NCBI RefSeq assembly: GCF_016026235.1 | Contig: NZ_CP065613.1 | Length of the DNA: 64,000 bases | Origin: Escherichia coli | GTDB lineage: Bacteria; Pseudomonadota; Gammaproteobacteria; Enterobacterales; Enterobacteriaceae | Strand: one strand, 5' to 3' | Shown: positions 59,231-60,489 of the stretch, piece after piece | Layout of the letters: each line of letters starts with the position of its first letter | Numbering within the stretch: the first letter of the stretch is position 1 | Notes under the pieces: generated by a model | The model's database searches: none | What the model saw: only the letters and a program-made list of their open reading frames with translations | What the model was told of the DNA's origin: nothing | Translations under genes and position numbers: made by a program

Positions 59231-60421
59231 TTACTTGGTGATACGAGTCTGCGCGTCTTTCAGGGCTTCATCGACAGTCTGACGACCGCTGGCGGCGTTG
59301 ATCACCGCAGTACGCACGGCATACCAGAAAGCGGACATCTGCGGGATGTTCGGCATGATTTCACCTTTCTGGGCGTTTTTCATGGTGGCTGCAATACGTG
59401 GATCTTTCGCCAACTCTTCCTCGTAAGACTTCAGCGCTACGGCACCCAGCGGTTTGTCTTTATTAACCGCTTCCAGACCTTCGTCAGTCAGCAGATAGTT
59501 TTCGAGGAACTCTTTCGCCAGCTCTTTGTTCGGACTGGCGGCGTTAATACCGGCGCTCAGCACGCCAACGAACGGTTTAGATGGTTGACCCTTGAAGGTC
59601 GGCAGTACCGTTACACCATAATTCACTTTGCTGGTGTCGATGTTGGACCATGCCCACGGGCCGTTGATGGTCATCGCTGTTTCGCCTTTATTAAAGGCAG
59701 CTTCTGCGATGGAATAATCGGTGTCTGCATTCATGTGTTTGTTTTTAATCAGGTCAACCAGGAAGGTCAGACCCGCTTTCGCGCCAGCGTTATCCACGCC
59801 CACGTCTTTAATGTCGTATTTGCCATTTTCATACTTGAACGCATAACCCCCGTCAGCAGCAATCAGCGGCCAGGTGAAGTACGGTTCTTGCAGGTTGAAC
59901 ATCAGCGCGCTCTTACCTTTCGCTTTCAGTTCTTTATCCAGCGCCGGGATCTCTTCCCAGGTTTTTGGCGGGTTCGGCAGCAGATCTTTGTTATAAATCA
60001 GCGATAACGCTTCAACAGCGATCGGGTAAGCAATCAGCTTGCCGTTGTAACGTACGGCATCCCATGTAAACGGATACAGCTTGTCCTGGAACGCTTTGTC
60101 CGGGGTGATTTCAGCCAACAGGCCAGATTGAGCGTAGCCACCAAAGCGGTCGTGCGCCCAGAAGATAATGTCAGGGCCATCGCCAGTTGCCGCAACCTGA
60201 GGGAATTTCTCTTCCAGTTTATCCGGATGCTCGACGGTGACTTTAATTCCGGTATCTTTCTCGAATTTCTTACCGACTTCAGCGAGACCGTTATAGCCTT
60301 TATCGCCGTTAATCCAGATTACCAGTTTACCTTCTTCGATTTTGGCGAGAGCCGAGGCGGAAAACATCATCGTCGTTAATGCGGATAATGCGAGGATGCG
60401 TGCACCTGTTTTTATTTTTAT
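59231..60421 (-). CDS. malE: maltose-binding periplasmic protein MalE; initiator position carries ATA instead of ATG, so the longest intact ORF (379 aa) begins at 60370
   Basis: Mature MalE intact ([19 protein letters not shown]...RITK); upstream in frame reads TAG-ATT-ATA-AAA-ATA-AAA-ACA-GGT... = (I)[25 protein letters not shown]. Confidence 0.85.
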
Positions 60422-60489
60422 AATCTATGGTCCTTGTTGGTGAAGTGCTCGTGAAAACACCTAAACGGACTCTAGTTTCTTTATACGGC

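Follow-up and report, generated by a model that had tools for sequence, protein, structure and literature searches.

What can be expected of malE when its initiator codon reads ATA instead of ATG? This question is raised by a stretch of 64,000 nucleotides from Escherichia coli (contig NZ_CP065613.1 of assembly GCF_016026235.1; hereafter the window), in which malE, the gene of the maltose-binding protein (MBP), lies on the minus strand and carries ATA at the initiator position (60421..60419), the variant base being 60419. On the plus strand this base is T in the window and C in all other E. coli examined outside the ATA carriers. The Shine-Dalgarno (SD) sequence AAGGA (60435..60431, minus strand) is unchanged, with an anti-SD duplex of -5.1 kcal/mol, and is followed on the same strand by CCA, TAG, ATT and ATA and then by AAA ATA AAA ACA GGT GCA CGC. 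The spacing after AAGGA amounts to 6 nt to the in-frame ATT and 9 nt to the ATA. This near-cognate ATT (60424..60422, minus strand) adjoins the ATA on its 5' side and is a candidate weak alternative start, the use of which would possibly lengthen the signal peptide by one residue. A start farther upstream is impossible, since the TAG at 60427..60425 (minus strand) is in frame and closes the frame upstream.

Read from the ATA, the malE coding region (60421..59231, minus strand) comprises 396 codons with no internal stop, as judged from the frame and the comparison with K-12. It begins with the 26 codons of the MBP signal peptide (60421..60344, minus strand), (M/I) plus 25 residues, which are K-12-identical apart from codon 1. 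A scan of start-like codons found no canonical start (ATG, GTG or TTG) behind the malE SD before 60370; the only in-frame start-like codons ahead of the ATGs at 60370 and 60367 are ATT 60424, ATA 60421, ATA 60415 and ATC 60397. The open reading frame listing opens the malE frame only at ATG 60370, giving 379 aa with the N-terminus MMFSASALA. This codon is the first of an internal in-frame ATG ATG pair (Met18, Met19; 60370..60365, minus strand), which has no upstream SD and is the start of the 379-aa calls. A 161-nt alignment with K-12 ER1709 showed one difference, in the last base of the start codon, where the window has A and K-12 has G; FDAARGOS_943, the nearest complete genome, also has G at this base and thus ATG. 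The original prediction had described just this arrangement: its coordinates for the ATA were exact and agree with the K-12 alignment, the AAGGA it called intact is read unchanged at 60435..60431, and the scan likewise bears out its statement that no ATG, GTG or TTG lies between the TAG and ATG 60370.

The ATA also recurs in data of other origin. We found it in the Logan assemblies of two independent short-read SRA runs, SRR13627094, which matches the window at 100% over 4,180 nt, and ERR9828666, and in four NCBI assemblies of different submitters (GCA_008180225.1, GCA_031665325.1, GCA_050054195.1 and GCA_018228445.1). As these six other datasets share the base, ATA is a genuine heritable base.

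How rare the allele is was assessed by megablast with a 41-nt query centred on the site, such that no 28-nt seed can avoid the variant base. With ATA, this query had 0 matches in 5,426 complete RefSeq E. coli genomes. The corresponding ATG control matched 5,412 of the 5,426 genomes, 5,409 of them at 100%; the ATA null is therefore not a masking artefact. With a 121-nt query, malE was likewise found in 5,412/5,426 of these genomes and in 0 of them at 100%. An ATA 29-mer had no exact match in the GTDB species-representative genomes and none in the JGI metagenome contigs. Judging from these searches, the malE initiation region is essentially invariant in E. coli and ATA is a rare derived state.

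To place the allele within the species, the whole window was compared with FDAARGOS_943, and the differences were polarised with EC09 and K-12. Over 24 kb FDAARGOS_943 is the one complete genome with 99.9% identity, all others reaching 98.7% at most, and its MalE protein equals that of K-12. Together with the lack of a match in the GTDB representatives, this speaks against a window from E. coli B, from the type strain or from a GTDB species representative. The changes on the side of the window, all given for the plus strand, are A>G at 25809 (AceA E275G), C>T at 37312, A>T at 41381, G>A at 45653, G>A at 48491 (Pgi A249T), G>T at 49725, C>T at 53735 and 54102, a change to T at 54755 whose polarity is ambiguous (EC09 has A, FDAARGOS_943 has C), and C>T at 57123 (synonymous in malG), 59380 (MalE E348K) and 60419 (malE ATG>ATA). 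The start-codon change is derived, as EC09, K-12 and the sisters FDAARGOS_943 and GCA_002461615.1 all have ATG. AceA E275G and Pgi A249T stand out as two further lineage-specific changes in central metabolism.

Relatives were genotyped by exact-pattern searches over their loci, and named genomes were reached via exact-protein look-ups. Pgi A249T was found by such a look-up on 14 contigs, among them JTCO01, the draft genome of the enteroinvasive E. coli (EIEC) O143:H26 strain 4608-58 of phylogroup E (PMC4319576). The small EIEC cluster C6 includes O143:H26 alongside O167:H26 and O112ac:H26 (PMC8767346). GCA_002461615.1 and FDAARGOS_943 are ancestral at 49725, 53735, 54102, 54755, 57123, 59380 and 60419, while GCA_008180225.1 is derived at those seven sites and at 45653, and lacks Pgi A249T. 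In GCA_050054195.1, Pgi A249T and ATA are both present. These last two genomes order the changes, such that ATA arose on the branch to the clade and Pgi A249T later within it; by parsimony, strain 4608-58 would carry ATA as well. By its linked markers the window thus belongs to the EIEC O143:H26 lineage, of the strain 4608-58 type in phylogroup E, and on the same markers ATA is an allele fixed in a small clade of enteroinvasive (Shigella-like) E. coli, in which the 14 contigs with Pgi A249T, EIEC 4608-58 among them, form a sub-clade. AceA E275G is common to GCA_008180225.1 and the window and occurs in 33 blocks of the collection; the size of the clade may be put roughly at a few dozen contig records. 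Within 60 kb it is set apart by a handful of SNPs only, and hence it is young. The allele is a clean lineage marker for the EIEC O143:H26-type clade.

The malE-malF-malG operon lies divergent from malK-lamB-malM, and the malE-malK regulatory region between them (60422..60785) matches FDAARGOS_943 throughout, with 3 bases different from K-12. Downstream of malE, malF (59077..57533, minus strand; 514 aa) and malG (57518..56628, minus strand; 296 aa, with the synonymous lineage-specific C>T at 57123) are intact, and so are malK (60786..61901, plus strand; 371 aa) and lamB (61973..63313, plus strand; 446 aa), as judged from their full-length frames. In the ATA carrier GCA_008180225.1, malG, malF and malE are full length; in another, GCA_031665325.1, malT (901 aa), malP (797 aa) and malQ (694 aa) were called full length. 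No further lesion was seen in the malE frame, malF, malG, malK or lamB of the window or in malT, malP or malQ of GCA_031665325.1. In malE itself, 394 of the 396 codons give the K-12 residue, the exceptions being codon 1 and E348K, and 11 of its 13 nucleotide differences from K-12 are synonymous, which speaks for strong constraint on the gene until recently. In the genes examined, the start codon is thus the only visible lesion of the maltose system. By its sequence, such a start-only lesion fits a very recent knock-down or a tolerated low-expression allele equally well, since the clade is too young for the two to be separated in this way.

Two other genomes of the wider lineage show disrupted maltose genes. 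In FDAARGOS_943, malF is frameshifted, with 4 T where the window has 5 T at 58610-58614 (4765 in its examined locus), and in GCA_901482675.2, whose malE keeps ATG, malT is split into frames of 530 and 386 aa (756-3486 of its locus). Both may be long-read homopolymer errors; if they were real, they would indicate convergent decay of the maltose system in the wider lineage.

The second amino acid change in MalE is a GAA>AAA exchange in codon 348 (59380..59378, minus strand; E348K in the precursor, E322K in the mature protein). Within the EIEC lineage it is completely linked to ATA, and the order of the two is for this reason not determinable. At least six further assemblies combine E348K with an ordinary ATG start (UWKA01, UWNS01, UWNR01, DADVGK01, CATUGB01 and one ENA metagenome scaffold). 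These do not document a state with E348K before ATA, as all of them have GCC, not GCA, as a neighbouring synonymous codon and belong to another lineage. The independent occurrence with a normal start suggests that E348K is tolerated.

With the allele placed, its likely effect on expression can be considered. In reporter measurements, which are context-dependent and were not made on malE, initiation at AUA, AUC, AUU and CUG reaches 1-2% of the AUG level, the values spanning 0.02-3% from one reporter to another (bioRxiv 10.1101/063800). The computed properties of the malE initiation region are those of a strong site, A-rich and unstructured downstream, and the predicted local mRNA structure is about the same for both alleles (-10.3 kcal/mol with ATG, -9.3 kcal/mol with ATA). 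We therefore propose the following sequence of events. The transition, G>A in the coding strand and C>T at plus-strand 60419, has turned the malE AUG into AUA. On this strong, A-rich and unstructured region 30S subunits would still dock; the initiator tRNA, however, would pair poorly with AUA, and IF3 would discriminate against it, such that initiation at AUA 60421 or at the adjoining AUU 60424 would drop to the order of 1-3% of normal. The residual pre-MBP, its signal peptide normal or one residue longer, would be exported and processed to normal mature MBP.

Less periplasmic MalE results in less transport and less maltose use (PMC12094219). MBP normally stands roughly 20-fold above MalFGK2, and the transport rate follows the amount of MBP; given both, a drop to a few percent should cripple uptake, and maltose and maltodextrin uptake as well as chemotaxis would be strongly lowered. 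A poorly translated malE leader may bring about Rho- or RNase-mediated polarity on malF and malG, and MalT induction would be weakened when uptake falls. Expression of malF and malG may thus drop via polarity in the ATA carriers, with MalT induction weakened at the same time. Finally, drift or relaxed selection in an invasive pathovar restricted to its host may have led to fixation of the allele, as an early step of Shigella-like decay. We infer that strongly reduced MalE is the best-supported consequence of the change, as the original prediction had it. In our reading malE is probably hypomorphic or near-null in these strains, a tolerated state that became fixed in the EIEC O143:H26-type clade as a case of early gene decay.

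The persistence of the allele with no further lesions in the 8 mal genes fits equally well with a residual function that is still useful. AUA or the adjoining AUU might give enough MBP for a Mal+ or delayed Mal+ phenotype, and ATA would then be a tolerated or selected down-tuning of MBP and the maltose regulon and not a loss of function. We regard this as unlikely, though by no means negligible. It draws on the intact SD and its favourable distance from AUU (6 nt) and AUA (9 nt), on the A-rich, unstructured region downstream and on the fact that AUA initiation is measurable in E. coli (bioRxiv 10.1101/063800). Moreover, every other maltose-system gene examined is intact in the carriers, the allele is fixed in a clade that has been sequenced many times, and the annotations of four NCBI assemblies accept the ATA start (396 aa). 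The efficiency of AUA, however, is put at 0.02-3% of AUG by the same study (bioRxiv 10.1101/063800), and transport drops with periplasmic MBP (PMC12094219). Furthermore, ATA occurs in 0/5,426 complete genomes, which argues against a conserved regulatory design, and in a clade this young, with a handful of SNPs in 60 kb, the absence of further decay is not informative. A stronger form, in which AUA/AUU is a working natural start of a highly expressed gene and the O143 clade uses maltose at about 1-3% of normal MBP synthesis per mRNA, perhaps under selection for less MBP and a lowered MalT regulon, seems improbable to us. If true, lower LamB exposure or a cost saving in the intracellular niche might have been selected, and malE would bring the natural non-canonical starts in E. 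coli to three, this one being pathoadaptive.

The original prediction had also said what would speak against it, namely ATA in closely related wild-type Mal+ strains. Close relatives do carry ATA, which is fixed in the clade; literature searches found no maltose phenotype for EIEC or O143 and no paper describing the malE allele. Nor did they bring up a publication that lists malE among the decayed genes of EIEC O143.

A strongly reduced MalE as an early step of decay can be set beside several known systems. Reductive evolution of catabolism is described for EIEC and Shigella, e.g. for EIEC M4163 with its lac operon truncated by IS1 (PMC4319576, PMC2374995, PMC3218036). The malE allele resembles these cases in that an invasive host-restricted pathovar appears to carry a single sugar-use lesion fixed in a clonal lineage. 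Unlike decay by IS elements, frameshifts or nonsense mutations, the malE lesion is a start-codon transition to a near-cognate, which probably leaves some expression. Examined as a case of decay, the locus shows a derived start-codon lesion within a pathovar lineage and no further inactivating mutations, the latter being weak evidence either way in a young clade. Natural near-cognate starts offer a second comparison, and the one of infC serves IF3 autoregulation. Both infC and pcnB have natural AUU starts in E. coli, near-cognates at SD distance that are read by the initiator tRNA with low efficiency (bioRxiv 10.1101/063800). Like them, malE has the near-cognates AUA and AUU in frame at SD distance; in contrast to their conserved, regulatory starts, the ATA of malE occurs in a single young clade only, with 0/5,426 complete genomes having it.

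Laboratory mutants in the malE signal sequence (Bedouelle et al. 1980; Manson et al. 1985) have a lowered level of MBP in the periplasm, with transport down in proportion and poor use of maltose, according to a later source (PMC12094219). The phenotype predicted here, less periplasmic MBP and less transport, is the same; in those mutants, however, MBP is made and not exported, whereas in the ATA carriers the export signals are intact and synthesis should drop. A further parallel is found in the reporters of Hecht et al., who covered all 64 codons and thereby placed the same AUG>AUA substitution behind a functional SD (bioRxiv 10.1101/063800). Unlike their plasmid reporters (sfGFP, NanoLuc), malE offers a chromosomal initiation region with a natural allele, and hence a natural test case for the expression that AUA supports on a strong chromosomal initiation region. 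The allele also predicts weak or absent use of maltose and maltodextrin in a pathovar that is biochemically hard to tell from Shigella. All in all, the malE ATA is probably an ordinary example of early gene decay and no new kind of system.

As to the origin of the mutation, the two branches together have 18 polarised substitutions, of which 11 are plus-strand C>T and 3 are G>A. This points to the ordinary spontaneous G:C>A:T bias, and a mutagen acting on this lineage only is not needed. By replication geometry, the plus strand at this place should serve as lagging-strand template in the right replichore, and the strand asymmetry would follow from this. That all three mal-region substitutions are G>A on the coding strand had raised the suspicion of chemical mutagenesis or of a laboratory mutant; this was rejected, as the sister branch has the same G:C>A:T dominance and the allele is found in many independent surveillance-type assemblies.

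A different origin would be one clustered event, i.e. a C>T shower across 53.7-60.4 kb by cytosine deamination or alkylation on single-stranded DNA or by a deaminase toxin, with the start loss as collateral damage. Six consecutive clade-specific changes, at 53735, 54102, 54755, 57123, 59380 and 60419, are C>T on the plus strand and fall within 6.7 kb, a run with P ~ 0.005-0.008 against the local background, and all six occur together in GCA_008180225.1. The derived alleles at 53735, 54102 and 54755 are present in no complete genome on a similar background, an observation that favours such an event and by which we also rejected recombinational import of the cluster. Against it, plus-strand C>T is the commonest class on both branches (11/18), as expected from replication-strand bias, the sequence contexts of the six sites are mixed (TC three times, GC, AC and CC), the same branch has G>A at 45653 and G>T at 49725, and the spatial enrichment is about 3-fold only. 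We thus consider a single clustered damage event possible but not compelling, with a slim chance of being the true origin, and the ordinary spontaneous bias remains the preferred account.

The original prediction had further considered that translation would begin at 60370 and yield mislocalised MalE. In this case ribosomes would restart at the internal AUG 60370 or 60367, and the main product would be a cytoplasmic MBP with a 9-residue remnant of the signal peptide. These two codons are indeed the first canonical in-frame starts, and the 60370 start is used on record. The 379-aa product, including E348K, is recorded for 9 contigs and under the NCBI protein accession STM02520.1; gene calls of Logan likewise start at the internal ATG (379 aa). 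In the four NCBI assemblies with ATA, by contrast, the coding sequence on record begins at the ATA (396 aa). The same allele is thus annotated in two incompatible ways, an inconsistency of 379 vs 396 aa that the present comparison exposes, and neither record flags a probable defect. ORF finders choose the internal ATG only because ATA is disallowed. The internal AUGs lack upstream SD complementarity, with duplex energies of +1.0 kcal/mol for 60370 and +0.4 kcal/mol for 60367 against -5.1 kcal/mol for the native SD, and the site lies 51 nt inside the frame, where ribosomes coming from AUA or AUU would translate across it. A mislocalised MalE from 60370 is therefore unlikely to be the main product, and we hold internal restart as a whole to be very improbable.

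Restoration of AUG at the level of the mRNA was considered as well. The context of the site, UUAUAAAA, was looked at for A-to-I editing of the malE mRNA. Editing of this kind would seem improbable, since UUAUAAAA does not contain the UACG loop motif of TadA.

The weakest explanation, also raised in the original prediction, is a single-base sequencing or assembly error in the genome of the window with ATG as the true codon; it has in its favour the single-base difference from all complete genomes and is next to impossible, given that two independent short-read SRA assemblies share the base with four NCBI assemblies of different submitters and that ATA is linked to at least seven other clade-specific SNPs.

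Several features outside the mal region were recorded along the way. Between aceK and iclR (~28300-30600) lies the remnant of an EspL4/ShET2-family type III effector gene, for which the annotation gives a frameshift plus an internal stop in FDAARGOS_943 and a frameshift in EC09; one base, at 28901, sets the window apart from FDAARGOS_943 there. Between pepE and rluF (~38400-44200) we found an operon for L-sorbose utilisation and PTS (sorE, PTS IIA-IID, an SDR oxidoreductase and a regulator) in which all ORFs are open, and which K-12 presumably lacks. Differences from FDAARGOS_943 in the rRNA operon (18321-21462) are concentrated in the 23S/5S part, where a patch at 20064-20074 has 7 of 11 bases changed and four indels of 1 nt occur; by its look, the pattern stems from exchange among the rRNA operon copies or from noise in the assembly and not from point divergence. 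In NZ_CP065615.1, the nearest complete relative, many pseudogenes are annotated at 3.94-4.09 Mb among the genes for sugar and heme uptake, namely a GntR-family regulator, galactitol PTS IIC, shuT, hutW and glpG. We take the mal region of this genome to be inverted with respect to the K-12 gene order, and its malT and nik-gadE regions to be collinear.
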